Of a stretch of DNA of 64,000 nt, positions 1 through 15,279 are shown in pieces (the first letter of the stretch is position 1; the number at the start of each line of letters is the position of its first letter). The notes under the pieces are model-generated. The model did not search any database. It was not told where the DNA came from and saw only the letters and a program-made list of their open reading frames with translations. Source of the stretch: an uncultured Gemmatimonadales bacterium (GTDB lineage: Bacteria > Gemmatimonadota > Gemmatimonadetes > Gemmatimonadales > GWC2-71-9); the NCBI GenBank assembly GCA_963844035.1, contig CAWJMT010000031.1:64001-128000 (forward strand), written 5' to 3'. The position numbers were made by a program, and so were the translations under genes.

Positions 1-532
1 CTAGCCGGTCGGCAGGCTGGCGCTGCGACATGAGCGCCGGCGCGGTATGACCCCGCGTCCCGATGTCGAGCGTCATGGTGAGGGTGAGGTGGCCGGGAGT
101 GAACCCCAGACGGGCGTAGAACCCGATGTTCTCGACCGTGCGCGGCATGGTCTCGAGTCCCAGCGTCGTCACACCTTGATCCATCAGCCAGTCCGCGGCG
201 GCGCGCACGATCCGCTTGCCGATCCCGACGCCCTGCTGGTCGGGGCGCACCGCGAGCGGGCCCATCCACCCCTCGGCGCCCGAGCGGTGCGCGATGTTGA
301 ACGCGGCGATCTGGCCGGCGTCGTCACGCCACACCATGGCCCCGTCCCCCGCATCCTGCAGCGCATAGCGCCAGATCTGGGGATTGAGGTACGGGACGCG
401 CACGCCGACCAGCCCGTCGCGCCGGTAGCGGTCCGTGAACGCGTCCGCGAACACGCGGTTCAGGCCTTCGATATCGCGTTCCTGGGCGCGCTCCGGCCCG
501 GAGACGTGCCGCTCAGGCAGCCACGCCCGCAT
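1..532 (-). CDS. GNAT family N-acetyltransferase (3' end runs off the window)
   Basis: Manual translation, not in the ORF track: MRAWLPERHVSGPERA...GWMGPLAVRPDQQGVGIG...NIGFYARLGF. It has the GNAT acetyl-CoA motif A (QGxGIG) and the N...FY..LGF motif. The ATG at 532 overlaps the reconstructed sbcC end. Confidence 0.85.
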   Translation of the reverse strand, partial: MRAWLPERHVSGPERAQERDIEGLNRVFADAFTDRYRRDGLVGVRVPYLNPQIWRYALQDAGDGAMVWRDDAGQIAAFNIAHRSGAEGWMGPLAVRPDQQGVGIGKRIVRAAADWLMDQGVTTLGLETMPRTVENIGFYARLGFTPGHLTLTMTLDIGTRGHTAPALMSQRQPADRL

Positions 533-2941
533 CGGCAGCCCCCAGGGTAGCGGTATCGTCCCGGACCACGCTCGTGCCTCGGGCGGGGTCGAAGTCCACG
601 CGGATCACGCGATCGAGTCCCTCCCGTACCTGCTCGATGTGCGTGATGAGAATGACCTGCGGAAAGCGGTCGGCCAGGCGCCGCAGCAGCCGACGACGTG
701 CTGGCGGCGGCTCTCGTCGAGCGAGCCGAAGATCTCGTCCAGCACCAGCAGCGAGAGCGGCTGGCCGGCCCGCTCGGCGATCATCTGCGAGATCGCCAGG
801 CGCAGCACCAGGCTGGCCAGGTCCTCCTCGCCGCCCGAGATCACCGGCTTGGGAACGCCGTCGTCGAGAATGGTGACGTCGTAGTCCTCGTTCAGCTCCA
901 GCTCGTGGTAGCGGTCGTCGGTGAGATCGGCGAGAAAGCGCGACGCGATCTCGCTGATCTCGGGCCGCATCGCGGCGTTCAGGTCGGCGCGCAGGTCGGA
1001 GAGTCCGCGATCGAGCTCGTTGTGCAGCCGCTGCCGGGTCTTGAGGACGGCGATGTGGCGCTCCTGCGCGGCCCGCTCTTCCTCCCGGCGCCCGGCCTCG
1101 CGCACGTCGCTTTCCGCCCGCACCAGCTCGCCCCGCGCCTCCACCAGCGCCAGATCGGCCTCGCGCAGCGCGCCCAATGCCCGATCGTACGCGTCCTTGG
1201 CGAGGCGGTACTCCTTCTCGGAGTATCCCTCGGCCGCGAGCGCGTCCGCCAGCTGCTTCACGCGTCCCTCCGCCTCGGACAGGTCGCGCTCGGCCGCCTC
1301 CGCCTCGCTCACCAGGCTGCTGGCACGCGCCGCCCGCTCCTCCAACGACGCCGCTTCGAGCGCCACCGGCTCGAGCTTGAGGAGGCTGGCGCGCACCGCG
1401 TCGTGGTGGGCGACGTCGTACCCCGTGCGACGCGTCGCCTGCTGCCGCTCCACGGCGGCGGCGCGCTCGCGCGCCGTTTCCAGCTCGCGCCCGGCCCGCA
1501 CCCGCTCCTCGGCCCGCGCCCGCAGCTCGCCCGCGCGCTCACTCGCGCGCCGGCTCTCGTCGCGCAGGGCATCGCGCGCCGCCTCAGCCGCCACCACCGC
1601 GGGTGGCGCGCTCGCGAGCTGATCCAGGCGCTGACGGAAATACTTCCCGTCTTCCACGATCGCCTGCAGCTGGCGGTCGAGCACGCCGAGCACCGCGGCG
1701 TGCTCGTCGCCGAGCGGGCGGCGGCAGGTGGGACACTCACCCTGTGACCCGAGCTGTGCGATCTTGTCGCGCTGCTCCTTCACGTCGTCGTATTGCGTGA
1801 GCAGCTCGGTCCGCTTGGTCTGGGCGTACTCCTTCTCCCGAACCCACGCGGCGCGCTGCTCCTCCACGGCCCGCGCGGCGGCCTGCCGGCCCGCTTCCAG
1901 CTCGCGCGCCTCCTGCTCCGCCTGTGCCAGCGCCGCCTCCGCGTCGGCCAGCTCGCCGATGCGCTGTTCCAGGCGCTGCATGGTGCGCGCCAGCTCATCG
2001 AGCTGGGCCTGGTCCGCACGCCGCGCGGCATCGGCCTGTAACAGCAATTCGAGTTCGGCGAGCTCCGCCTTGAGGCGCGCGACGGGAGCCAGCTCCGCCT
2101 CGAGCTCTTTCAGCTGGTCGCGGGCGCGCATCGCATCGGCCATCTCTTTGTCGAGCCGTTGAAATTCGTGGCGGCGGGCCAACACCCCGTGTTCCGCCAT
2201 GCGGCGCTCGCCGTCCAGGGACAGCGTCCGCTCGCGCCGCGCCACCCAGGCGTTCCAGAGCGGCTCCTCGCGCGCGCACGATTGCTGGGCGGCGTCCCGG
2301 ACCGCGCCCGCCTGCTTGGCCGCGCGGCGCGTGGCCGCCAGGCGTTCTTCCGCGCCGCGGCGCTGCTGGGCGAGCGCCTGCGGGTCGGGCAGCGCGGTCT
2401 CGAGCCCCCGCAGCTCGGCGGTGAGCGCGTTGCGTACCTCGCGCACCCGCTCCTGCGCGATCCGCAGGCGTTCGTACCCGAGCACCTGCGAGAGGAATGC
2501 GGCACGCTCGGTCTTGCCGAGCGACGCCATCACCGCCAGCTCCTTCTGTCCGGTGAAGTACGTGTTGAAGAACTCCGCGTGCGTCATGCCCAGCGTGCGC
2601 TCGAGCTTCTCCGTTACCGCCTTGAGCGAGTTCGCGACGGGCTGGCCGTCCTGGTACAGGACGGCGTTCGAGAGCCCGCGCGTCACGCGGTACTCGTGCG
2701 CGCCGAGGCGGAACTCGAGCTCCACCTCCACGCTCGCGCGGCCTTTCGCTCCGAGCCGGCGCACCGAGTCTTTGTCGCCCCGCACGGCCTGGAGCCCGTA
2801 GATGGCCCAGGCGATCGCTTCCAGGATGGTCGTCTTGCCCGAGCCGTTGGGTCCGAAAATCCCGGTGATCCCCGGCCCGAACTCGATCTCGGTATCGGCG
2901 TGCTGCCGGAAGTTGGTCAGATGGAGGCGGCGCAGCTCCAT
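513..2941 (-). CDS. sbcC: SbcC/Rad50-like SMC-family ATPase (~800 aa; frameshift near 690)
   Basis: Walker A GPNGSGKT, long coiled coils, central zinc hook CPTC, signature ISGGE, Walker B LLVLDE with D-loop GSLD. The H-loop (VILITH) and the true stop (TGA at 513-515) are in a shifted frame. Confidence 0.92.
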
Positions 2942-4113
2942 CAGCTCGGCTCCTCCCGCCCCGCCTGCTCTACGTACTCGACCCCCAGCCGCACGAATTC
3001 CGCGCGATCGAGATCGGCGTCGAGGGGGCGACGCTCCAGGAAGTCGTGCACCGTCTCGGGGAGGGTCTGGCGCTGGCCGGAACCGCCCGTGGCCGCGACG
3101 CGATGCACCGCAGGGCGGCGGAGATCGAGATGGAAGTGCAGCGCGCGGGACTTGAACCCGCGGATGGCGGCGTGGTCCAGCTCGCGCGCCGTCGACCGCG
3201 AGACGTCGAACACGAGGAGCCGGACAACTTGATCGTCGATCGCGGGCTTCGCGGCGGCGACGGCGGCGGCGATGCGCTGGTCCAGCTCCTTGGGAGTGAG
3301 TCCCTTCCCCTGGATCGGGGGGAGGTCTACATGACGGCGCACCGGCGCAATCGGCCGGACGGTCACTCTGGCTCCCGGTAGCTCCACCAGCAGATAGCCT
3401 TTGCCGATGCGCCCCTTCTCTTCCTCATCCTGCAGCTGGCCCCAGGGGTTGGGCGGAAGGTACTCGAGGGTTCCCGAATACCAGGCGTTCGCTGCCACCT
3501 GCTGGACCTCGTGGTAATGACCGAGCGCCACATAGTCCCACTGCGCCGGAGCGAGATCCTGCAGATCGATCGGTGCGCCCCCGTATTCGGCTGTGCCGCG
3601 AGTCTCTCCAACCCCGGGGAGCTGCGCGTGAACGACGAGGACGTTGCGCGTCGTTCCCCGCTGGGGGCGCAGGGACGGACGCTCCGCCTGCATCAACGCC
3701 TGATGCGGCACTGCGAGCACCGCACAATCGAGCTTGGGGTAGGTCAGCCGTCGCGCCTGGTCCACGACGACTTCCACGCCGAGCGCTTCGTACAAGCGCA
3801 GGATCGTGCCTGTCTCGACCGAGCGCGGCGTGTCGTGGTTGCCCGCGATCATGACGACGGGCGCATCCGGCAAATCCGCGCGCAGGCGCTGCAGCTGTTG
3901 AAACAGAAACAGGATCGCGGAATTGGTGGGCCGGACGGAGTGAAAGATGTCGCCCGCCAGGACGATCAAGTCGGGACGCTGGGCGATGAGGTCGTCCACC
4001 GCGCGCCGGAATGCCTCCGCGATGTCGGCCTCGCGCTGGTTACTCCCCCGTGGCGTCTGCCGCTCGTACTGGCGGAACCCGAGGTGCAGATCGGCGAGGT
4101 GGGCGAGCTTCAC
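2941..4113 (-). CDS. sbcD: SbcD/Mre11 metallophosphoesterase nuclease
   Basis: Motifs DLHLG, AGDIFH, AGNHD and ALGHYH; its stop abuts the sbcC start. Confidence 0.92.
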   Translation of the reverse strand: MKLAHLADLHLGFRQYERQTPRGSNQREADIAEAFRRAVDDLIAQRPDLIVLAGDIFHSVRPTNSAILFLFQQLQRLRADLPDAPVVMIAGNHDTPRSVETGTILRLYEALGVEVVVDQARRLTYPKLDCAVLAVPHQALMQAERPSLRPQRGTTRNVLVVHAQLPGVGETRGTAEYGGAPIDLQDLAPAQWDYVALGHYHEVQQVAANAWYSGTLEYLPPNPWGQLQDEEEKGRIGKGYLLVELPGARVTVRPIAPVRRHVDLPPIQGKGLTPKELDQRIAAAVAAAKPAIDDQVVRLLVFDVSRSTARELDHAAIRGFKSRALHFHLDLRRPAVHRVAATGGSGQRQTLPETVHDFLERRPLDADLDRAEFVRLGVEYVEQAGREEPS

Positions 4114-4117
4114 CCGC

Positions 4118-5009
4118 TCACTTCGCCTCGCGCAGCTCGAGCGTGGTCGACTGCTTCGCGGTCACGGTCGTTCCGTCCGCCATGCCCCCCCGGATGTGGA
4201 TGCGCACGGTCCCGCTCCTCGACGAGCGCAGCACGGCACCCCGGCGCACGGAGAACCGCTGTTCCCCGGTCAGGCGTCCTGACAACTTGAGGGTGAGGAC
4301 ATGACCCTCCTGCATGACCTTGATCGGGTCGCTGGGGAACGTGGTCTCGAGTGCGACCCGCAGCGTGGTGTCGAGCTCGCTGGCTTCGATGTCCTTCACT
4401 GTGAGTTTCGTCTTCGCCTTCAAGGGGCTGCCGCCGGTCATCTCCCCGAGTGGCGCCTCGACCTCCACGGTCCACGAGTCCCCAACGCCGACGGCTCGGG
4501 TGGGCAGGGGGAACGCCGCCTCCTTCAGACTCTTGCCGAACTGCTGGGCGAGGGGCGAGGGCTGCGCGCCGGCGTTGAGCAACTCCGCCCGCACGACAGT
4601 CATGCTGGAATCGTACACCACGGCGCTCGTGAGCCCCACGATGTTGTTGAGGGCTCGCCGAGCCGGATTCGCCGCCATCAGGGGCGAGTCCAGACGGGTG
4701 GAATCCACCCTGGCGGTGACTGCGATGCCCCCTGTGGTCGGGCCATTCACCGTCTGGGTGAATTGCATGTGCATCGCCATCTGCTGCTCGGGTATCTTCG
4801 CGGTCGAGTCCCCTTCGAACGTGATGTCGAAATACTGATCCAGGTTGTAATGATAGACTGCCCCCGCCGGCGGGTGGTACGTCAGGGTCACCTTGGTCGC
4901 GTCGCCGCCGCCGCACCCCACTGGCAGCCGCGAGGGCCGGAAGGATGGCGGCGAAGAGCAGCCAGCGCGACGCGAGCGTGGAGCGGTCCCTCAGATCAGT
5001 ACGGGTCAT
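4118..5009 (-). CDS. Exported protein or lipoprotein of unknown function (frameshift near 4925)
   Basis: The ATG at 5009 overlaps the herA end and gives a signal-like N-terminus (SRWLLFAAILPALAAA). This joins ..GCGGGDATKVTLTY.. in the 4118-4921 frame, a beta-rich body. Confidence 0.65.
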
Positions 5010-6957
5010 CGCCGATCGGATTGAGCGGCGGCACGGCCTCGCGCGGCCGGTCGGGCGCCGCGGCGGCCACCCGCTGTCCCAGGGCGCGCCGGAACACACC
5101 GAGCGGATCGTCGGAGCGCGCCCGCCGGGTCGAGGCGAGCGCGCGGCGGACGTCGTCGGGCGTACGGTCCGCGATCAGGTCCTTGATCTGGTTCGGCCGC
5201 GCCCGGGAATCGAGCCGCACGAGCTGGCGCACCACGGCGTCCTCGAACGGCAGGTCGGTGGCCGGCGGAAACCGCTCCACGCCGTCCCGGCCGCGCAGCA
5301 CCGCGGGCCGCGGAAACCGCACGAAGATCGGCTGCGTGAAATGGGGATGGCGCACCATCAGCTCACCCACGGGGAGCGTGGCCAGCTTGATCTTGATCGC
5401 GGGTGACAGCACCTGGTATCCCGGCGTGGCCAGCTCGTCGTAGTCCATCCGGCCGTACACGGTCGTCGCGGCGTTGCCGACCACGCGGCGGTGGATTTGC
5501 GAGCGGAATTGCTCGGCGCCGAAGAGCACGAGGCCAAGGTAACGTCCGCGCTCAGAGATATCGAGCAACATCTTTTTCACGTACGTCTCCGGTCCGTCCG
5601 CCGATGCGTACTTGTTGAGCTCGTCCACAAACACCACCACCGCATCGACTCCCAGGTCGCGCCGCTCGAGGTGCTCGCGCAGTTTGGAGACGACGCGCGC
5701 AAACACGAGGTCCTGGCCGAGCAGATCCACGTTCGCCACGTCCACCACGTACACGGTGCGGTCCTCGAGCGAGCCCCAAGGCAGATCGTTCGACGGCCCG
5801 TCGTCGGCAACGAGACCCTTGCAACGCGTCGAGATGTTCGAGAGGCGGTTCCGCACCTTGCGGATCGTCGCGATATGGTGGGTGCGCCACATGTCGCCGC
5901 GCCCCGCCGACTCGAGCCCGTCGAAGATGGCGCGAAACAGCGCGTCGAGATCGGCGAACGTCTGCACCCGGTGGGTGCCGCCGAAGCCGTCGGCGAAGTC
6001 CTTGTTGAGCACGCGGTCGGAGAGAAAGTCGATGAACGCGTCGGCCTTCGCGTCGATGTCGTCTCGATTCAACAGCACTTCGGCAAAATCGAGCACTTCC
6101 TGGAGGCCCCACACCAGCGGCTCGACATCACCCACCAGCTCGGGGTGGGTGCGCAGCGTATTGAGGTTCACGCCGTCGGCCTTGAAGGGCGCGTAGTAGC
6201 GCACGCCGGCAAACGGCTGTGGCGCGATGCCGAGCCGTTCGTAGCGGCGCCGATCGGCATCGTCGAGGCTGCCCGGCTGGTCGAGAAAACAGAGGTCGGG
6301 CCCTTTGACGTTGAAACAGACCGCGGCGACCTTGCCCTTGTGCGCCGGGAAGTGCTGAAAGATGGAAGAGAGCAGGAACTCGACCGCACTCGTCTTGGTC
6401 GCGAGCCCCGACACACCGGAGATGTTCAGGTGCGCCGCTTCGGGACCGAGCAGGAAGTCCGCATCGAGATAAACGGGAGCCTCGAGCCCCCCGGATGTGT
6501 AGAGGCCGAGCGGAATCCCGGTGGGCGTGGCGGAGGTGAGATACGCGTCCATGCGGAGCGCTTGCGCGACGTCTGCGTCCGTCGCCACGAACACCTGCCC
6601 CAGCGGCACGGGTTGCAGCGGCTCTTCCGGCTGCTGGCGCAGCACCGCGGCGGTCCACAGGCGGATTTCCTGGCGCATCGTGGGATTCTCGGCAGCGCGG
6701 GCGGGGTCCCCCTCCGCGCCGATCACGTCGTGCAGCGGGGTCGCCAGATCCGAATACGCGAACCCGTCAGTCACCACACCGTGCACCACACGTTCCCCGT
6801 TGCCCGTTCCCCGTTCCCCGTCTTCGACGCGGACGATGGCCCCGATGCCGATCGTGGTCTCGGTCGCGGTCCAGAAATGGAATTGATGCGGCGTGGCGGG
6901 CTTGAGCTCGGTTGCCACGACGCGGCCGATCGGGACGGCACTGCTGCGCTGGATCAC
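4996..6957 (-). CDS. herA: HerA-family hexameric ATPase/DNA translocase
   Basis: N-terminal HAS-barrel-like region, variant Walker A HLNISGVSGLATKTS, Walker B VVFVDE, arginine-finger region ERGRYLG, and A-E-Q motif; directly follows a NurA-like gene. Confidence 0.88.
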   Translation of the reverse strand: MIQRSSAVPIGRVVATELKPATPHQFHFWTATETTIGIGAIVRVEDGERGTGNGERVVHGVVTDGFAYSDLATPLHDVIGAEGDPARAAENPTMRQEIRLWTAAVLRQQPEEPLQPVPLGQVFVATDADVAQALRMDAYLTSATPTGIPLGLYTSGGLEAPVYLDADFLLGPEAAHLNISGVSGLATKTSAVEFLLSSIFQHFPAHKGKVAAVCFNVKGPDLCFLDQPGSLDDADRRRYERLGIAPQPFAGVRYYAPFKADGVNLNTLRTHPELVGDVEPLVWGLQEVLDFAEVLLNRDDIDAKADAFIDFLSDRVLNKDFADGFGGTHRVQTFADLDALFRAIFDGLESAGRGDMWRTHHIATIRKVRNRLSNISTRCKGLVADDGPSNDLPWGSLEDRTVYVVDVANVDLLGQDLVFARVVSKLREHLERRDLGVDAVVVFVDELNKYASADGPETYVKKMLLDISERGRYLGLVLFGAEQFRSQIHRRVVGNAATTVYGRMDYDELATPGYQVLSPAIKIKLATLPVGELMVRHPHFTQPIFVRFPRPAVLRGRDGVERFPPATDLPFEDAVVRQLVRLDSRARPNQIKDLIADRTPDDVRRALASTRRARSDDPLGVFRRALGQRVAAAAPDRPREAVPPLNPIGDDPY

Positions 6958-7958
6958 GTGCCCGTCTTCGGAAGGCGGGAGGTGGACCGCGGGAGCAGAT
7001 CCCGGGGGGCGCGGGTCTTCAGATACGTCTCCACATCATGAATGGGGTAAAGTAGCCGGTCCCAGCGCGGGTCGGGGGTGGAGATCGGCGCGCGCTCGCG
7101 CACCAGCCAGCCGCTCGCCCGGGACGCGGCGGCCACGCCCTCGTCGCGCGCGCACGCTTCGATCCGCAGCAGGCCGAAGAGCAGGTCATTCCCTTCCCAC
7201 GGCCACAGCCGCAGGTACCAGGAGAAGACCTGGTGCCGCGCCCGGCCGCGCGGCCGAAACACGCTCGTGCGGTGCAGCGCCGGAAGGGTGAGCGCGCGGG
7301 TCAGATCGTCGCCCTCGAAGTACTGCGCTCCGTGGCTCTTGATCACACCGAGCGCGCGGGGGTGATCGGCCAGGACGGCGGACTCGGAGAGCACGCCATC
7401 CACCACCAGCCACTCTTCCGGCGCGAGCGAGCGCACGTGCCGCTCGCCCACGCTCTTCTCGACGGCGACGCGGATGTTCTCGACCGCGCGCCGCGCCGCT
7501 TCGAGGGCGCGTCCCGGTTGCGCCGCCTCCTCCGCAACATCCACCAGCTCGATCCCGCTGGCGTCGAGCGCGGCCCGCACGCCGGGGCGCAGCGCCTGGA
7601 GTGAGGCGACGTGGAATTCGCGCGTCGCTTCCACCACGGTGCGGAGCCGCCGTCCGGCGGCGCGGCGCCGCACCGCTGCGGCCACGTGGGCCCGCACGAT
7701 CGGCACGACGCCGTCGTAGTAGGTCACCTTCCAGCGCTGGATACCGTCGAGGAACGACACGACCGGAGGAGGCGATGCCGCCGTGTCGACGGCGTGCACC
7801 CGGAGCTCGGCGTCCTCCACCAGCTCGGCCCCCGCGACCTCTGTCAGATCGGTCCGCCCCAGGCTCTCGTCCGGGACGTGCGACGCCGGCACCGCACCCG
7901 CCGCCACTAACGCGTCGGTCCAGCGCGCGGCCAGGGTCAGCGGGTCCTCAGGGCCCAA
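6954..7958 (-). CDS. nurA: NurA-family 5'-3' nuclease
   Basis: Acidic motifs FLDGIQR and VVDG plus GVIKSH, SWYLRL and C-terminal YPIHDVE; 4-bp overlap with herA. Start position uncertain. Confidence 0.75.
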   Translation of the reverse strand: MGPEDPLTLAARWTDALVAAGAVPASHVPDESLGRTDLTEVAGAELVEDAELRVHAVDTAASPPPVVSFLDGIQRWKVTYYDGVVPIVRAHVAAAVRRRAAGRRLRTVVEATREFHVASLQALRPGVRAALDASGIELVDVAEEAAQPGRALEAARRAVENIRVAVEKSVGERHVRSLAPEEWLVVDGVLSESAVLADHPRALGVIKSHGAQYFEGDDLTRALTLPALHRTSVFRPRGRARHQVFSWYLRLWPWEGNDLLFGLLRIEACARDEGVAAASRASGWLVRERAPISTPDPRWDRLLYPIHDVETYLKTRAPRDLLPRSTSRLPKTGT

Positions 7959-8665
7959 CCGATGTAGGTGACCGTCGTGTCGTCGATGAGGGATCGACTG
8001 CCGTCGCCCGCGCGCCCCACCCCGCTCATCTCCTGCACCACCATGCCGTGACGCGCGAGCTGTTCGGTCAGATCGGCGGGCGGGATGAAGCGGGCGAAAT
8101 CATGGAAACCCTCGGGCATGGTGTGCTCCACGTATTCCTCTTCCCAGATCAGCCGCAGGAACGCGGCGATCGTGCGGTTGTGCGTCAGGAAGCCGAGTCC
8201 GCCCCCGGGGGCCAGCACCGTGGCGATGGCGGCCAGGGTGCGGTCCAGGTTGTCCACGTGCTCCAGCACGTCCACGGCGAAGACGAGGTCGAAGGTGCCT
8301 TCGATCCCCGTGCCCGTCAGGTCCTCGCCGGTACCCCGGTAGTATTCGATCGACAGTCCGGTCTGTGCGGCGTGGTCCCGCGCGGCCGCCAGCGATTTCT
8401 CCGACGGGTCGACCCCGGTCACCACCGCGCCTTCGCGGGCGAGGGCCTCCGACAAGATCCCGCCGCCGCAGCCGACATCCAAGACCCGTTTACCGCCGAA
8501 CCCGCCGAAGGCGTGGCGAAAGTACTCCACGCGGATGGCATTGAGCTGATGCAGTCCCGCGAACGGGCCCTCGCTGCTCCACCATACGCCGGGCGTGCGC
8601 TCCACCAGCCGCTCGTACTTGGCCGCCTCCGGGAGCCCGCCCAACCGCGGTAGGGGATCGCTCAT
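7937..8665 (-). CDS. UbiG-like class I SAM-dependent O-methyltransferase
   Basis: WW..EGPFAGLHQLNAIR, VLDVGCGGGILSEALA and FDLV..DVLEHV motifs are typical of the UbiG family; substrate uncertain. Confidence 0.8.
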   Translation of the reverse strand: MSDPLPRLGGLPEAAKYERLVERTPGVWWSSEGPFAGLHQLNAIRVEYFRHAFGGFGGKRVLDVGCGGGILSEALAREGAVVTGVDPSEKSLAAARDHAAQTGLSIEYYRGTGEDLTGTGIEGTFDLVFAVDVLEHVDNLDRTLAAIATVLAPGGGLGFLTHNRTIAAFLRLIWEEEYVEHTMPEGFHDFARFIPPADLTEQLARHGMVVQEMSGVGRAGDGSRSLIDDTTVTYIGWALRTR

Positions 8666-9294
8666 GAGCCCACCTTCACCGCGACCACCACGCCGTCACG
8701 GATCGGCACGACGGACGAAACGAGCCGCGGGTCGGAGGCGGCGAGCAGGTTGAACGCGCGGACACCCGCCGTGTCGGGAGACTGGTCCGCGGGATCCACC
8801 ACGGCGCCGTGGAAAAACGCGTTGTCGCACAACAGCAGTCCGCCGGCGCGCAGCAGCTTGAGGCTCCACTCGAAATACTGAGGAAGGTTCGCCTTGTCGG
8901 CATCCAGGAAAATGGCGTCGAATCCGGGCTTTAGCGTGGGCAGCACGTCGAGCGCCGCCCCTTCGAGCACCTGGACCTGCGCGCTCAACCCGGCCTCAGC
9001 GAACGCCTGGCGGGCGAGCGATGCGTGGCGCGGGTCTTTCTCGATGGTGGTCAGGCGGCCGCCCGCCGGTAGCGCGCGTGCCAGCCAGACGCCGCTGTAC
9101 CCGGCAAGCGATCCGACTTCGAGCACCGTGGTCGCCCGCACGGCGCGCAGCAGCACGTGCAGCAGTTTGCCTTCGTCCGCGGAGATGTGAATCGGGGGGA
9201 GCTTGAGCCCGGCCTGGCGCGCGCGGATGGTGGTGAGAATCGCGTCTTCGACGGCAAACAGCTCGGTGGCGTAGCGCTCGAGCCGTTCGTCCAC
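8662..9294 (-). CDS. Cation-dependent O-methyltransferase (Methyltransf_3/COMT-like)
   Basis: VLEVGSLAGYS, FDAIFLDADK and GGLLLCDN motifs. Confidence 0.88.
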   Translation of the reverse strand: MDERLERYATELFAVEDAILTTIRARQAGLKLPPIHISADEGKLLHVLLRAVRATTVLEVGSLAGYSGVWLARALPAGGRLTTIEKDPRHASLARQAFAEAGLSAQVQVLEGAALDVLPTLKPGFDAIFLDADKANLPQYFEWSLKLLRAGGLLLCDNAFFHGAVVDPADQSPDTAGVRAFNLLAASDPRLVSSVVPIRDGVVVAVKVGS

Positions 9295-9296
9295 GT

Positions 9297-9812
9297 TCAG
9301 GCGGTGGCCTCAAGGTTGGGGAATGGCGGCACCTCCGCGAGCCACAGCCCGGCGATGCGGGCCTGTTTGTCGACTTCGACCAGGAGGTGGTCGGCCACCC
9401 GTACGACGCTGACCGGACGCGGGCGCCCGAACCGCAGGTGGAAGACGGTTTCGCCGGCGTTCTTCTCGACCGTGAGCGCCGTGTCCACCTCGACGGCCGC
9501 CACGCCGGGCTGCGATTTGCGGCTGGGGAACACCACGCGGCCGTCCTTCGCGGCGGCGGGCGTCGCCAGGTCGGGCATGGTCCGCACCTCGTCGGGCCAG
9601 GCCACCACATCCACGCCGCGCAAGCTGCCGCCCGCGACGTCGATGACCACGAACGAGCCGTCGGCGCCCGACAGGTCCACGGTGCCGTTGAGCCCCTTGG
9701 TGGTCGCGCCACCCTTGCAGGCGACCGAGAGGATGTCGGTTTCCGGGTCCCAGCGGTAGGTCACCTTGGGAAGGGCTCCGGACAGTGGCTCAATGCGCGC
9801 TTCGAGGTTCAT
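9297..9812 (-). CDS. Hypothetical protein with two DUF2283-like repeats
   Basis: MNLEARIEP... in the 9297-10919 frame; YRWDPETDILSV...VVIDV and ...VADHLLVEVDKQARIAGLWL. Confidence 0.65.
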   Translation of the reverse strand: MNLEARIEPLSGALPKVTYRWDPETDILSVACKGGATTKGLNGTVDLSGADGSFVVIDVAGGSLRGVDVVAWPDEVRTMPDLATPAAAKDGRVVFPSRKSQPGVAAVEVDTALTVEKNAGETVFHLRFGRPRPVSVVRVADHLLVEVDKQARIAGLWLAEVPPFPNLEATA

Positions 9813-9854
9813 ATAAGGGGCGGGTAATATAGCGCCAGACTCGGGAGGAGCGCG

Positions 9855-11090
9855 ATGCAACGGCGGGAGTTTGTGACGGCGGCAGGAGCGGCGCTGGTGT
9901 CTGGGCGGGAAGGCGGGAAGGCGGGAAGGCGGGTGAATGATCCCGGCCTCCCGCCTTCCCGCCTTCCCGCCGTTCTTCCTCAAGAGCCCACGCTCGGCCC
10001 GGCGATATTCGCTCAACGCATCGCGCGCGCGCAGGCCGAGCTCACGACGCGCAAGTGGGACATGCTCATCGTCGTGCCCAGTGCCAACTATCGCTACTTC
10101 ACCGGTGACCACCCGGGTACGAGCGAGCGCCTGATCGCGCTGATCGTGCCGGCGGCGGGCGATCCCGCCATCGTGTGCCCGGCATTCGAAGTGGACCGCA
10201 TCAAGGCGCATGCGGGCATTCGCGACATCCGCGGCTGGGAGGAGCACGACAACCCGTACGACCTGGTGAAAAAAGTCCTCCGGGCCCGGAAGCCGCGCGG
10301 CACCGGGACGATCGCCCTCGAGGCATCCACCGCGTTCAGCACATTCGTCGGATTGAAGGATGCGCTCGACGGCTGGAAGTTCGAGGACGCGACGGGCGTG
10401 ACGACGCGGCTGCGGCTGATCAAGACTCCGGAGGAAATCGCCTTGATCCGGCGCGCCATCGCCATCACCGAAGAGGCGCTGGCGGCCACGTTCGCACAGC
10501 TCGCGGTCGGGATGAGCGAGCAAGACACGGCGCGGTTGCTTGCGAATGAGATGGAAAAGCGCGGCGCCGAGGGCGACGGCCTGGTGCAGTTCGGCGCGTC
10601 GAGCGCCTTGCCCCATGGCGGACCGGCCGGCGCCACCCTCGAGCGGGAGTCGCCCGTCCTCATCGACTGCGGCTGCCGGGTGGCGGGCTACACCTCCGAC
10701 ATCACCCGCACGATCTGGTTCGGGGAGCACCCCACCCTCGAGTTCACGAAGGTCTACAACCTGGTCCACGACGCCCAGACCGCCGCGATCCAGCTTGGGA
10801 AGCCGCTGTTTACACCCTGCCAGGAGATGGACCGGGCCGCACGCCGGGTGATCACGGAAGGCGGGTTCGGGCCCCAGTTCACCCACCGTCTGGGCCACGG
10901 CATCGGCCTCGACATCCACGAGCCGCCGTATCTGGTCGAAGGAAACGAAACCCGCCTCGAGCCCGGGATGGTGTTCACCGTGGAACCCGGGATCTATCAG
11001 GCGGGGAAGTTCGGTGTGAGGATCGAGGACGACTGCGTGATGACCGAGAGCGGCGTGGTGGTGCTCAGTCAGCGACCGGCGAAGCTCTAA
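9855..11090 (+). CDS. Xaa-Pro peptidase (M24) with twin-arginine signal
   Basis: MQRREFV Tat motif; metal-binding motifs DCG, SDITRT, HRLGHGIGLDIHE, TVEPG and GVRIED; GGAGG RBS upstream. Confidence 0.92.
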   Translation: MQRREFVTAAGAALVSGREGGKAGRRVNDPGLPPSRLPAVLPQEPTLGPAIFAQRIARAQAELTTRKWDMLIVVPSANYRYFTGDHPGTSERLIALIVPAAGDPAIVCPAFEVDRIKAHAGIRDIRGWEEHDNPYDLVKKVLRARKPRGTGTIALEASTAFSTFVGLKDALDGWKFEDATGVTTRLRLIKTPEEIALIRRAIAITEEALAATFAQLAVGMSEQDTARLLANEMEKRGAEGDGLVQFGASSALPHGGPAGATLERESPVLIDCGCRVAGYTSDITRTIWFGEHPTLEFTKVYNLVHDAQTAAIQLGKPLFTPCQEMDRAARRVITEGGFGPQFTHRLGHGIGLDIHEPPYLVEGNETRLEPGMVFTVEPGIYQAGKFGVRIEDDCVMTESGVVVLSQRPAKL

Positions 11091-11099
11091 CCTGGAAGA

Positions 11100-12287
11100 T
11101 CAGTCCCTGAGTTTCTTCGCAAACTCCACGATCTTGCCAAGCGCCCGTTCAACGTCGTTTGTCGCTGCGGCATAGGACATCCGCACGTAGCGATCGTCTC
11201 CAAAAGCGGCGCCCGGAACCATCGCTACACCGGTGGTGGTAATGAGCCGCGTACAGAACTCCGTCCCGCTGATGCCCCCGAACGAGTCCACTCGAAAGAA
11301 GAAGTAGAAGGCGCCCAACGGATCGACGAACTCCACGCCGGGGAGGTCACGTCGGAAGCGCCCGACGACGATATCGCGGCGCTTGCGGAATTCGGCGACC
11401 ATCCGTAACACGTCTTGCTCCACCCGCTCGTCGGCGAGCGCGGCCGCGGCGGCGTATTGCGCCGGATGATTGGCACCGGTCGTCGTGTGCGACTGCAGCG
11501 CCGCCATCGTCTTGGCCACCTTCGACGGGGCGAGCGCCAGCCCGATGCGCCATCCCGTCATCGCGTACGCCTTGCTCACGCCGTAAATCACGATCACGCG
11601 CTCGAGCATCTCGTCGGGCAGATCCAGGAACGACGGCGCCGGGCCGGGGCCGTAATGGATCCGCCGATAGATCTCGTCGGCGATCACCCAGACCTTCTTC
11701 TCCATGGCCCACTGCGCGATCGCCTTGATCTCGCCGTGCGTGTAGACGCCGCCGGTCGGGTTGCAGGGAGAGCACAGGATCAGTCCCTGCGTGCCGGGCA
11801 CCACCCGATCGAGGTCGCGCACGCCGACCTTGAGACTCCACTCCGGGTCCCCCGGCACGAGCACGGGACGGGCGCGCGCGAGGTGGACGATCTGCGGATA
11901 CGACACCCAGGCCGGCGCCGGAATCGCCACGACGTCGCTCGGGCCGAACAGGGTGAAGCAGACGTTGAAGAGCGACTGCTTGGAGCCGTTCGAGACGACG
12001 ATGTTGTCGGCGTTGACGGGGCGGCCGCCCGAGAGCACGGAGAGATGCTTGGCGGCTGCGGCACGCAGCTCGAGGATCCCCTCGTTCGCGGGATAGTGCG
12101 TCTTGCCGTCGCGGATCGCCCGCATCCCCGCCTCGGTGGGAATCGACGGCGTGGGAAAGTCGGGCTCGCCCGCGCCCAGGTCGATCACGTCCTCCCCGGC
12201 GGCGCGCCGCCGCTTGGCTTCCTGGGAGATCGCGATCGTTGCCGAGGTTTCGAGGTGCTGCAGGTTGGGTGAGAACCCTTGGCTCAT
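11100..12287 (-). CDS. PLP-dependent class I/II (aspartate-type) aminotransferase
   Basis: GEPDF, SPCNPTG, DEIY and SKAYAMTGWRIG (PLP lysine) motifs. Confidence 0.93.
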   Translation of the reverse strand: MSQGFSPNLQHLETSATIAISQEAKRRRAAGEDVIDLGAGEPDFPTPSIPTEAGMRAIRDGKTHYPANEGILELRAAAAKHLSVLSGGRPVNADNIVVSNGSKQSLFNVCFTLFGPSDVVAIPAPAWVSYPQIVHLARARPVLVPGDPEWSLKVGVRDLDRVVPGTQGLILCSPCNPTGGVYTHGEIKAIAQWAMEKKVWVIADEIYRRIHYGPGPAPSFLDLPDEMLERVIVIYGVSKAYAMTGWRIGLALAPSKVAKTMAALQSHTTTGANHPAQYAAAAALADERVEQDVLRMVAEFRKRRDIVVGRFRRDLPGVEFVDPLGAFYFFFRVDSFGGISGTEFCTRLITTTGVAMVPGAAFGDDRYVRMSYAAATNDVERALGKIVEFAKKLRD

Positions 12288-12316
12288 GCGTCAATATCCC
12301 CACGCGCAATGTGTGC

Positions 12317-12340
12317 GGGCAAGGCATGCCTTGCCCCTAC
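12317..12340 (-). repeat. GTAG-type REP-like palindrome
   Basis: Perfect 20-bp palindrome GGGCAAGGCATGCCTTGCCC (12317-12336) followed by CTAC (GTAG on the minus strand), in a divergent intergenic region. Confidence 0.65.
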
Positions 12341-12400
12341 CCCGCCCGGACGCTAGCATCCCGCCAGCACAAGAACCGCCCTTTGACAATCGAGGATCGT

Positions 12401-13691
12401 GTGACGACGGTAGATGAGGCCCGGGCCGCGCTCGAGCGCGGCCGCCCGGTGGTATTGGTGACGCCCCCCGCGCCGGATCAGGCGGGAGCACTCTGGGACC
12501 TGGTGGGCGCGCCGGGGGAAACCCCCAAGGGAAGTCCCGCGCTGGTCATCGTGTGCGCTGGCGAGGGTTTGCCCGCCGAGTGGGCCGCCGCGGCACCCAG
12601 CGACCGTCGGCTCCACGCCGTCACCGGCCTGCGCCGCAGTGAGCGCTGTCTCCGCGACCTCCCCATCGGCGCGCTCGCCGGCACCGTCGCCGATCTCTCG
12701 GCGCTGCTCTCCCGTTCCGCGCTCAAACTCGACACCGTTTCGACCATCGTGGTCGCCTGGCCCGAGCTGCTCATCACCACCGAGCAGGCGGGCGCGCTCG
12801 ACACGCTCCTGAGCGCCGCCACGAACGCCCGGCGTGTGGTGCTGAGCTGGAATCCCGGCATGCTCAGCGACTTCCTGGAGCGGCACGCCCGCCGCGCCGA
12901 GGTGGTGGGAGGGGCGCCGACGTACGACGGCGCGCCCCTGTCGCCCATCGGACCGGCGCGCTACGTGGTCGCGTCCCGTTCCCGCCACGCCGCGTTGCTC
13001 CAGGACGCACTCGATCTGCTCGATCCGAAGCACCCCTTTCGTCTGGGACGGAGGTCCCTGCGATGCGGGCGATGCTCCCGACGCCGTGTTCTGCCTCCGG
13101 CTGCCCACCCGCGAGCAATTCGCGCTCTTGTCGCAGCGGGGCGAGCCGATCGTGTTCCTGGACGCCTCCCAGCTCCCATACCTCCGTTCGATTGCGGCGC
13201 CGCTCACGCCGGCGCGGCTGCCGTCCGCGGCCGATCGGGCCCAGGACCGCGCGCAGGCTATGCGCACGCGGATCGCACAGCTGCTCGAGACGCGGCAGCC
13301 CGACGGCGAGCTCGCGGTGCTGGCGCCGCTGTTCGAGCGTTTCGATCCCGCCGAGGTCGCGGCGGCTCTCCTCGCGATACTGGGGGACGAGGGACGGGGG
13401 AAGGGGGAAGAGGGCGTTCCCGCCGCCGCACCAGCCACCGGTGGCTCAGTGCGGGTGTTCGTCAACGTCGGCACGAAGGACCGCGCCAGCGCCAAGGACC
13501 TGGTCGGCGCGCTCATCAAGGAAGTAAAGATCGGCAAAGGAGAGATCGGCCACATCGACGTGCGGGAGACGTTCAGCGTCGTCGAGGTCGCCGCGGGGGT
13601 GGCGGAGCGCGTGGTGCGGGACCTGTCGGGCGTGACCATCCGCGGGCGCCGCGCGATGGCGCGTCTGGATCGCTACAACTCGCCCGCGTGA
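12401..13691 (+). CDS. Degenerate DEAD-box-like protein with C-terminal DbpA RNA-binding domain (frameshift near 13040)
   Basis: The C-terminus VRVFVNVGTKDRASAKDLVGALIKE..IGHIDVRETFSVVEV..IRGR is DbpA-like. The N-terminal region echoes a helicase domain 1 layout but lacks GKT, DEAD and HRIGR. Confidence 0.7.
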
Positions 13692-13710
13692 TTCGAGTCC
13701 CCAAACACTG

Positions 13711-13736
13711 ACGGGCCGCCCAGCGGGGCGGCCCGT
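13711..13736. terminator. Hairpin between convergent genes (probable terminator)
   Basis: ACGGGCCGCCC-AGCG-GGGCGGCCCGT, a perfect 11-bp stem. Confidence 0.65.
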
Positions 13737-13770
13737 AATCAGCGCAACCGACGTCTGATGTCTGACGTCT

Positions 13771-14061
13771 CTACTTCTTGTTGTTCACCGCCATCTTGAG
13801 CTGCTTGCCCGCACGAAATGCCGGAGCGATGGACGCCTTGATCTGAATCGCGCCACCGGTCTTGGGATTCCGTCCCATGCGAGCGGCGCGCTTGCGGGCC
13901 TCAAAGTTTCCGAATCCGGTGATCTGCACCTTCGCACCCTTCTTCAACTCGACAGCAATGATGCCCTTGTCATCGAATAGGGCTTCGATTGTCCGACTCG
14001 CGTCGGCCTTGGACATCTTGGTCCGCATCGCCAGCGCCGAGGTCAGCTCAGCTTTGTTCAC
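13771..14061 (-). CDS. hup: DNA-binding protein HU
   Basis: MNKAEL...VQITGFGNF..RAARMGRNPKTG..I.I.A...PAFRAGK. Confidence 0.95.
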   Translation of the reverse strand: MNKAELTSALAMRTKMSKADASRTIEALFDDKGIIAVELKKGAKVQITGFGNFEARKRAARMGRNPKTGGAIQIKASIAPAFRAGKQLKMAVNNKK

Positions 14062-14201
14062 AGAAGGTCTCCTTGATGAGAGTGGGGCGAGAAACCGCAG
14101 GCCCCACGGCCACTATCTGATGGGTACAGCGGAAAAGCCTCATAACTTGGGCACAATATGGGGATATCCCCCGAGAATCCGCAAGATACGGGCACTCTTG
14201 G

Positions 14202-14271
14202 GGGTCAGGTGTCGGGTGTCAGGTGTCAGGTGTCAGGAAGGCAACCCTAGCACCTGACACCTGACACCTGA
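14202..14271. repeat. Inverted heptamer tandem repeat element (TGTCAGG)n / (CCTGACA)n
   Basis: About 5 TGTCAGG units, a spacer ending in CCTAGCA, then about 3 CCTGACA units. Confidence 0.9.
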
Positions 14272-14286
14272 GCACCTTGTCCCCCC

Positions 14287-15279
14287 ATGCTCAACGTCGC
14301 CCTGACCGGAAACATCGCCGCCGGCAAGTCCACCGTGGTCGGGTTCTTTCGCCGCTGGGGCGCAACGATCATCGACGCCGACCAGCTGGCGCGGGAGGCG
14401 CAGGCGCCGGGCACCGAGGTCCTGGCGGCGATCGTTCGGCGCTTCAGCCAGGGTGTGCTGGCGAGCGACGGCTCGCTCGACCGCGCCGCCCTGCGTTCCA
14501 AGGTGATGGGGGATGAGGCGGCCCTGAGCGACCTGAACGCGATCGTCCATCCGGCGGTGCAGCGGCGGCGCGAGGAGCTGCAGCAGGACGCCGCACGGCG
14601 CGGCGACTTGCTGGTCGTGAACGACATTCCACTCTTGTTCGAAGTCCTCGACCCCACCGAGTTCGACGTGGTCATTCTGGTGGATGCGCCCGTCGCGGTG
14701 CGCCGCACCCGCCTGCGCAACATGCGGGGGCTCTCCCATGAGGATGCCGACCGGATGATCGCCGCCCAGATGCCCGCGGCCCGCAAGCGGCCGCTCAGCC
14801 AGTTCGTGATCGAAGACGCGGGCACGCTTCCGGAGCTCGAGGCGCAGGCCCGCACCGTCCTGCGGGAGCTGCGGCGCCGCGCCGCTACGGAGGCTCTGGG
14901 ACGGCCCGCGCAGACCCTGCTCCTGGTCGCGGCCGACGGCAAGGAGAAACCCCCGGCGTTCGCGGAAATCGGGGCACGCTACGTGGAAGCGGGACTCACG
15001 GTGGAACGGGCCGCCGCCAAGGACGCAGCCGCGCTGACGGCCCGCCTGCGTCCCGACGCCATCGTCGCGACGTCAGGGGCAGCGGCGGCAGCGCGCGCGG
15101 CGTGGGAAGGGATCGGGCGGCCGGGAGCGCTGCTCTACCTGAGCGAGGACCCCGACCCGGTGGCCGTGCGGTTGGATCTGCGCCTGTGGGGCGGCGAGCG
15201 CGTCACGCTCGTCGAAGAGGGTGCCGCCGGTCTGGCGCCGCGGTCCGACCTGTTCCCGGCACCCGACGGATCGGCTTGA
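14287..15279 (+). CDS. coaE: Dephospho-CoA kinase with ~130-aa C-terminal extension
   Basis: ALTGNIAAGKSTV, IIDAD, LNAIVHP, DIPLLFE and RMIAAQMP motifs. Confidence 0.9.
   Translation: MLNVALTGNIAAGKSTVVGFFRRWGATIIDADQLAREAQAPGTEVLAAIVRRFSQGVLASDGSLDRAALRSKVMGDEAALSDLNAIVHPAVQRRREELQQDAARRGDLLVVNDIPLLFEVLDPTEFDVVILVDAPVAVRRTRLRNMRGLSHEDADRMIAAQMPAARKRPLSQFVIEDAGTLPELEAQARTVLRELRRRAATEALGRPAQTLLLVAADGKEKPPAFAEIGARYVEAGLTVERAAAKDAAALTARLRPDAIVATSGAAAAARAAWEGIGRPGALLYLSEDPDPVAVRLDLRLWGGERVTLVEEGAAGLAPRSDLFPAPDGSA

Follow-up and report, generated by a model that had tools for sequence, protein, structure and literature searches.

Within a 64,000-nt stretch of contig CAWJMT010000031.1 (assembly GCA_963844035.1, positions 64,001-128,000; hereafter the window, in which all coordinates are counted), the genes for NurA, HerA, SbcD (Mre11) and SbcC (Rad50) form a block on the minus strand that is an inherited chromosomal gene set of the bacterial order Gemmatimonadales, with SbcD-SbcC as its core and with HerA, and above all NurA, as optional add-ons. 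The gene order nurA-herA-[lipoprotein]-sbcD-sbcC was confirmed, and the close packing of co-oriented genes described in an earlier note on this DNA was borne out by junctions of 1-4 nt: nurA and herA overlap by 4 nt, sbcD and sbcC overlap by 1 nt, and the lipoprotein gene stops 4 nt before sbcD. On balance we think it probable that the block processes broken DNA ends, beside RecJ, in an order that is mostly without AddAB and RecBCD. SbcD-SbcC would bind and clean a broken end, after which the duplex would be drawn into a HerA ring carrying a NurA dimer and its 5' strand trimmed. The block would act as an always-on helper beside RecJ, as a constitutive and partly dispensable end-processing module. 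The assembly of a HerA hexamer on a NurA dimer (6:2) is assumed from the Deinococcus radiodurans structure 7F6D, and translocation-coupled cutting of the 5' strand is likewise extrapolated from that organism, whose NurA-HerA is reported to make 3' tails in vitro (PMC9960219). A hand-over from Mre11-Rad50 to HerA is suggested by archaea, where Sulfolobus HerA has been described to co-precipitate with Rad50-Mre11 (PMC2288612). Co-transcription and constitutive expression are inferred from homologues; in the window, the signs of co-transcription are limited to overlapping gene ends and a single common -10 element.

By profile, predicted fold and active-site residues, the product of the first gene of the block is a bacterial-type NurA. 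It was not recognised by Pfam, NCBIfam or a single-sequence search of PDB, and PF09376 gave no match to it and weak matches to 7 of 101 relatives (best E 1.5e-4); given the fold and profile evidence, this miss is a limit of the PF09376 model. A profile of the 101 relatives matched only D. radiodurans NurA (drNurA; 7f6d, E 7.6e-19) and Thermotoga maritima TM1739 (E 7.6e-11) in PDB. The AlphaFold2 (AF2) model reached a predicted local distance difference test (pLDDT) value of 89.9 and a predicted template modelling (TM) score of 0.88, a single-sequence model of pLDDT 35 having been discarded. It has the RNase H-like NurA fold by which the earlier note had wanted its proposal to be judged: Foldseek ranks 1-4 were all NurA structures, with 7f6d_G, 1zup and Sulfolobus NurA 2ygk as the first matches, E values of 1e-12 to 8e-6 and TM scores of 0.43-0.57. 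When mapped via the profile alignment (with a 20-residue offset between the 369-aa chain and the 349-aa protein), D71, K207 and R298 align with the essential residues D53, K201 and R309 of drNurA, the second DG motif is present as D187-G188, and E167, D187 and R298 are invariant in 93/93 clade sequences. Near the N-terminus, AF2 predicts a strand at residues 23-27, a candidate for the dimerising strand of bacterial-type NurA, and W13 (in 67 of the 93 sequences) sits in an extra N-terminal helix and is a different tryptophan from W8 of drNurA. Among the matches listed, 120 NurA homologues were unnamed or called 'hypothetical'.

Judged by its sequence, HerA is a Deinococcus-type bacterial HerA. 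Unnamed by Pfam and NCBIfam, it had D. radiodurans HerA (drHerA) as its sole match in PDB (E 4.4e-42), and archaeal HerA was not matched at all by phmmer. The Walker A motif GVSGLATKTS is present at residues 181-190, as had been pointed out; this variant is nothing special, since drHerA has GISGVATKTS and hence the same GxSGxATKTS pattern. Residues K188, T189, K218, D221, D445, E446 and R472, for which the references in drHerA are the Walker A K/T, K217, D220, the Walker B DE and the trans-acting R513, are invariant in 140/140 clade sequences, which include some genomes twice. For both NurA and HerA, the best match by sequence, profile and fold is D. radiodurans NurA-HerA (PDB 7F6D, 7WRW and 7WRX; PMC9960219), with which the Walker A pattern and the ATPase and nuclease residues are common. 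Prediction of a complex of HerA (residues 5-570) with SbcD scored 0.00 in two runs, with controls not folded, and is no evidence either way.

SbcD and SbcC lean archaeal by profile score and appear to form a distinct subfamily. All SbcD motif residues are present (D8, H10, D55, N92, H93, H162, H199 and H201); D8, H10, D55, H93 and H162 are invariant in 72/72 sequences, and N92, H199 and H201 are found in 48, 65 and 71 of the 72, respectively. SbcC comprises a split ABC ATPase head and a coiled coil with a CPTC hook, and hook and signature are conserved in 91/91 and Walker B in 90/91 full-length relatives, whose lengths range from 779 to 836 aa with a median of 809. The hook and the size of about 800 aa given in the earlier note therefore hold, the latter for the relatives, whereas the frame in the source assembly is broken, as described below. 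The canonical SbcCD models (TIGR00618/TIGR00619) stayed below the curated cut-off or below the archaeal scores: with NCBIfam, SbcD obtained 70.6 bits against a cut-off of 77.65 for the canonical model and 83.7 for Mre11_Sulfo, and SbcC obtained 82.8 with the canonical model as compared to 165.2 with PRK03918 Rad50. Similarly, in PDB the Methanocaldococcus jannaschii proteins (Mre11, E 9e-26; Rad50 head, 2e-23) were preferred to E. coli SbcD (7e-9) and SbcC (3e-5). We speak of a distinct subfamily and not of a shown archaeal origin, because three relatives' SbcD score about equally with archaeal and bacterial models and because the scores of SbcD and SbcC with archaeal hidden Markov models are all far under the curated cut-offs. 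The label 'archaeal-style' in the earlier note thus suits SbcD and SbcC by profile, but not NurA and HerA, which are of the Deinococcus/Thermotoga type. In the ESM Atlas, the SbcC head was nearest to an archaeal fragment cluster and then to viral ones, and SbcD was nearest to Gemmatimonadota clusters, which is a lead only.

Conservation was followed in two sets. The close loci are the best 80 of 520 confirmed HerA loci, all but one titled Gemmatimonadota and mostly Gemmatimonadales; the genome survey is an even sample of 150 Gemmatimonadota genomes with a completeness of at least 90%, 107 of them in the order and 43 outside. All four genes were found in the same order in 48 of 49 sufficiently long related loci, which exceeds chance, and sbcC, which was not searched genome-wide, follows sbcD in 50/50 long loci and in further inspected stretches. 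Among the 107 order genomes, an sbcD orthologue is present in 106, herA in 97, nurA in 83, and nurA together with herA in 82. The genes nurA, herA and sbcD could be chained in 5-kb steps in 77 genomes, so that the linkage is conserved in relatives; of the 96 order genomes with both herA and sbcD, 95 have the two at most 5 kb apart, and nurA and herA lie within 300 nt of each other in 73 of 82. The chromosomal site, between aspC and a GNAT gene, is fixed across families, and the block's genes occur in one copy per genome. Distances of HerA and SbcD correlate with r 0.91 over 72 loci (0/500 permutations as high), as vertical inheritance would produce for any pair of genes; the HerA/SbcD tree is a FastTree tree with long branches and mostly unnamed rows, and all trees hold bacterial or unnamed rows only. 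Losses are nested, herA occurring without nurA in 15 genomes, nurA without herA in one, and neither in nine; in the 8 of these nine that were inspected, both genes are cleanly gone from the site. An obligate four-part machine finds no support, as nurA, or nurA together with herA, was lost repeatedly and sbcD-sbcC was kept. The arrangement herA-sbcD-sbcC without nurA anywhere in the genome was also seen in near-closed genomes, with the HerA ATPase motifs intact. Relatives' records include soil and water metagenomes.

The absence of the usual resection enzymes, which the earlier note had asked about, was found in the source genome and in two thirds of the order. PF12705, the nuclease domain of RecB, AddA, AddB and AdnA, was detected in 11/14 control genomes. 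The source genome has no PF12705 domain, AddB-like queries from relatives remained unmatched in it, and AddA-like queries matched UvrD-like proteins only. In the survey, in which 17 weak matches were not listed, PF12705 was not found in 73/107 order genomes and was present in 43/43 outside the order. RecJ was found in 105/107 order genomes, which argues against genome incompleteness as the cause of the absence of PF12705, and RecJ offers another resection route by analogy with Deinococcus. In five genomes checked individually, RecC was missing in all, Ku was present in all, and RecQ-like genes were present in all, each under the curated cut-off. AddAB-like pairs, as classed by hand, account for 22 of the 34 PF12705-positive order genomes; they occur in 8/24 nurA-less and in 14/83 nurA genomes (Fisher p 0.09, with kin not independent), a difference that is not claimed. 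PF12705 is lacking in 55 of the 77 linked-block genomes, and a strict replacement of AddAB by the block was rejected because 13 genomes have neither NurA nor PF12705.

These distributions also bear on whether the block is one machine. It is possible, although we would not call it probable, that two neighbours are involved: an old sbcD-sbcC pair doing ordinary SbcCD work on hairpins and blocked ends, and nurA-herA settled alongside in a long co-oriented run, with RecJ and a RecQ-like helicase carrying out resection. In agreement with this are the presence of sbcD in 106/107 genomes versus 83 for nurA, the clean loss of nurA-herA in 8/8 inspected genomes without both, the passengers (lipoprotein, methyltransferases, GNAT) in the same run, a distance of up to 4.5 kb between herA and sbcD, and the RecJ and RecQ-like matches given above. 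However, herA remains beside sbcD after loss of nurA in 15 genomes, and the same four-gene set came together with other HerA clades and with SbcCD of the canonical type in a family of the same class (f7), on a plasmid of Candidatus Chlorohelix (Chloroflexota; NZ_CP128402) and on a Streptomyces plasmid (NZ_CP134205). Such sets suggest selection for a partnership between nurA-herA and sbcD-sbcC. The layout with the other HerA clade was seen in 8/8 inspected f7 stretches (herA, sbcD and nurA in all). The f7 and plasmid clusters, which are patchy or plasmid-borne, link the same four families and read nurA-herA-sbcD-sbcC or herA-sbcD-sbcC-nurA; they differ from the block in a HerA of a separate clade (about 32% identity), in most members of which both pore arginines known from drHerA are retained (7/8 in f7), and in canonical SbcD/SbcC (TIGR00619 E 1e-36 to 1e-55; SbcC 925-1130 aa; in f7, canonical by score in 6/6 proteins tested beside herA), and the f7 hosts all keep PF12705.

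Four f7 stretches also carry decayed orthologues of the archaeal-leaning Mre11-Rad50 pair, with GARD or GPRD in place of the GNHD motif and a Rad50 partner that retains the CxxC hook region but no longer has the ATPase head motifs; their hosts keep AddAB-like genes. The cassette on NZ_CP128402 (2841-12155) encodes a sigma factor, an ImmA/IrrE protease, a NurA-like protein, HerA, SbcD and SbcC, and on NZ_CP134205 an ImmA/IrrE gene adjoins herA-sbcD-sbcC-nurA.

The retention of herA without nurA in 15/107 genomes, with the reverse in one only, would also be expected if HerA acted for the most part independently of NurA, using ATP to drive fork remodelling or loading in partnership with Mre11-Rad50 or RecJ, and NurA were a decaying accessory. 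HerA ATPase residues are invariant in NurA-less genomes, the HerA pore loops are changed, the catalytic Asp is lost in one NurA clade, and HerA-RecJ and HerA-Mre11 contacts have been reported in other organisms. We nevertheless regard this as very unlikely: both genes are kept in 82/107 genomes, in 73 of the 82 within 300 nt, and E167, D187 and R298 of NurA are invariant throughout the clade.

The block has the GC (guanine plus cytosine) content of the rest of the window, with an even composition, and its neighbours are housekeeping genes. No close plasmid homologues were found, as 6 of 72,556 plasmid records matched, all at <35% identity. PADLOC gave no match to a NurA/HerA defence model save a weak MADS match (E 3e-5) and none to a HerA system, and its matches of SbcC were generic ATPase matches. 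The co-oriented run starts at 9812, downstream of the element CTATATT, which is present in 54/59 of the relatives' upstream regions; a consensus sigma-70 scan found nothing. The likely LexA box of the order is a direct repeat, TTCGG-N6-TTCGG, with an AT-rich spacer, and stands before lexA in 5/5 genomes. It occurs 5 times in the source genome, before lexA, before recA and twice ahead of an imuB-like/dnaE2 region (contig positions include C12:98608, C2:41247, C1:37169 and C1:41056), and 20 times in five relatives, where 8 matches precede recA-like or lexA genes and a reversed control gave 0; further sites lie before a dinB-like gene and helicases. A limited literature search found no publication on a LexA box of Gemmatimonadales. 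The block is probably not under SOS control, because the box is absent from its promoter and none of the 20 matches lies near the clusters of the five relatives; the sole near-match in window 1-14500 was rejected, as it lies inside a methyltransferase gene and has a GC-rich spacer.

Lack of a LexA box would fit an always-on surveillance nuclease, and a module that destroys or restrains ends has to be weighed here; in the manner of RecBCD in the absence of Chi, such a module would break down linear DNA of foreign origin, from phage or as incoming fragments, or keep recombination in check. AddAB nuclease degrades unprotected DNA ends in other bacteria, and the order is mostly without it; also, nurA has been lost repeatedly. 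Deletion of nurA-herA is reported to raise the damage resistance of Deinococcus (PMC9960219), an antiviral role has been proposed for Thermococcus kodakarensis HerA-NurA, described as cutting both strands (PMC12977600), and bacterial NurA-HerA is credited with a defence role in a 2026 review (PMC13748450). We consider end destruction unlikely in view of the PADLOC results, the fixed housekeeping site, the single copy, the window-like GC content and the lack of a close plasmid homologue. For the same reasons (no specific PADLOC match, site and copy number), the defence machine offered in the earlier note finds little support.

Several observations weigh against end processing by the block as favoured here. 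nurA was not found in 24/107 order genomes, including the 13 that are also without PF12705, and the SbcD tree needs 13 changes of state, 9 of them forced by well-supported branches (this is a quickly built tree whose 68 rows were selected so as to cover the losses, the careful search being unfinished). AddAB-like pairs, by hand classification, co-occur with the full set in 14/82 genomes, the source genome is merely 83.7% complete, and the missing LexA box leaves no sign of damage induction. In NurA, Asn or Ala takes the place of the first catalytic Asp in 14/93 clade sequences, and the W8/pin region of drNurA is without a clear counterpart, no aromatic residue aligning with W8. In HerA, the pore arginines R495 and R552 of drHerA, which that enzyme needs for translocation on dsDNA, correspond to A453 and T511, with a basic residue in 0/140 sequences at either column, and mutating these arginines is reported to abolish 5' resection by drHerA (PMC9960219). 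The two columns vary in the wider HerA family too (basic in 20/64 and 6/64), and the conserved residues K449, K461, R490, R491, K522 and K524 nearby might substitute for the lost arginines. According to the literature, nurA-herA mutants of D. radiodurans (PMC9960219) and Thermus thermophilus are more, not less, resistant to ultraviolet light, and T. kodakarensis HerA-NurA cuts both strands (PMC12977600). The 14 Asp-substituted NurAs keep the other site residues, and the three tested fall in one clade.

Both the four gene families and their arrangement are known; the block stands out by its order-wide inheritance, the scarcity of AddAB, the archaeal-leaning Mre11-Rad50 and the altered HerA pore. 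Like the host of the block, D. radiodurans is without AddAB/RecBCD and has RecJ (PMC9960219). Unlike in D. radiodurans, the block is linked to sbcD-sbcC, HerA is without R495/R552, and NurA carries the additional helix at its N-terminus and no evident W8/pin motif. Blesa et al. (2017; PMC5448004) described a nurA-hepA(herA)-sbcD-sbcC cluster in Oceanithermus profundus, made up of the same four genes, with sbcD and sbcC lying downstream of herA, and with the same proposed function; that is a passing mention of one genome, as against an order-wide inherited block, and the likeness rests on its description and not on sequences. Together with family f7 and the Chloroflexota and Streptomyces plasmids, it shows that the layout has precedents in bacteria; the 2026 review denies nurA-herA-sbcCD synteny of this kind (PMC13748450). 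The archaeal herA-mre11-rad50-nurA operon described for Sulfolobus, Pyrococcus and Thermococcus (PMC2288612, PMC12977600) unites the same four families, and SbcD and SbcC resemble it in scoring best with archaeal Mre11/Rad50 and in the compact Rad50 of about 810 aa; in contrast, NurA and HerA are of bacterial type and dispensable in the order, whereas both genes are reported to be essential in Sulfolobus islandicus (PMC4351679). The anti-phage systems SIR2-HerA and DUF4297-HerA likewise place a HerA motor beside a nuclease, but here the partner is NurA and the location is housekeeping. No publication on the four-gene block in Gemmatimonadota was found in a search that covered few subscription journals. 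All four families are unnamed or half-named by Pfam/NCBIfam, which explains why the block was overlooked.

Coordinates and features of the block and its neighbours in the window.
Feature	Position	Strand	Remarks
nurA	6954-7958	-	334 aa; predicted bacterial-type NurA nuclease (profile, AF2 and Foldseek, residues)
herA	4996-6957	-	653 aa; Deinococcus-type HerA ATPase by sequence; sole PDB match drHerA
lipoprotein-like passenger gene	4118-5009, start uncertain	-	Pfam DUF6263, E 1.9e-6
sbcD/mre11	2941-4113	-	390 aa; metallophosphoesterase nuclease; all motif residues
sbcC/rad50	513-2941	-	Walker A, CPTC zinc hook, ISGGE signature, Walker B; one-base frame break
GNAT acetyltransferase gene	1-532, continues beyond window	-	overlaps sbcC end; Pfam on a relative's orthologue
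UbiG-like methyltransferase	7937-8665	-	22-nt overlap with nurA
O-methyltransferase	8662-9294	-	co-oriented, upstream of nurA
unknown protein	9297-9812	-	heads co-oriented run
CTATATT, likely -10 promoter element	9826-9832	-	conserved among relatives; heads whole co-oriented unit

In the source assembly, sbcC has an open frame of 778 codons only (605-2941). A one-base slip near 688-691, immediately after the Walker B motif, puts the final ~58 residues, H-loop included, into a different frame, which runs to 513. This break is likely, though not proven, to be an assembly error, because close relatives' contigs carry an extra base at 688/689 in 4/4 soil runs (all from one study), the SbcC C-terminus is intact in 6/6 relatives checked, and further genes of the source assembly, recQ-like and uvrD-like, are split as well. 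The lipoprotein gene has a second frame break near 4915-4930; it was classed as a passenger because herA lies within 300 nt of sbcD, without room for it, in 26/69 related loci, and the same gap of <300 nt was found in 39/96 genomes. The two methyltransferase genes upstream of nurA come and go among relatives. The protein at the head of the run has no Pfam match and was found in 64/80 related loci with about 70% identity. The GNAT gene follows sbcC in nearly all relatives, including those that have lost nurA and herA, and across both large families of the order it keeps to sbcC more faithfully than nurA and herA do. A pepP gene was rejected as a co-oriented neighbour, since the matches were antisense and the gene lies on the opposite strand. 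On the plus strand at 12239-13711, there is a frame-broken gene with a DbpA RNA-binding domain at its end and apparently without a helicase core.

With considerable doubt, we raise the idea that the main break resection of Gemmatimonadales is performed by a hybrid machine, in which an archaeal-like Mre11-Rad50 would pass DNA ends on to HerA-NurA of the Deinococcus type with its DNA pore rewired; this would have let the order shed AddAB, while a sister family kept AddAB and let the same Mre11-Rad50 decay. Independently of that idea, the order combines an inherited four-gene block with a mostly missing AddAB, and the set looks non-thermophilic. The block therefore suits asking whether Mre11-Rad50 makes HerA-NurA a strand-specific resector, a point reported as disputed for archaea (PMC12977600), and natural controls exist in genomes without nurA, without nurA and herA, or without the catalytic Asp of NurA.

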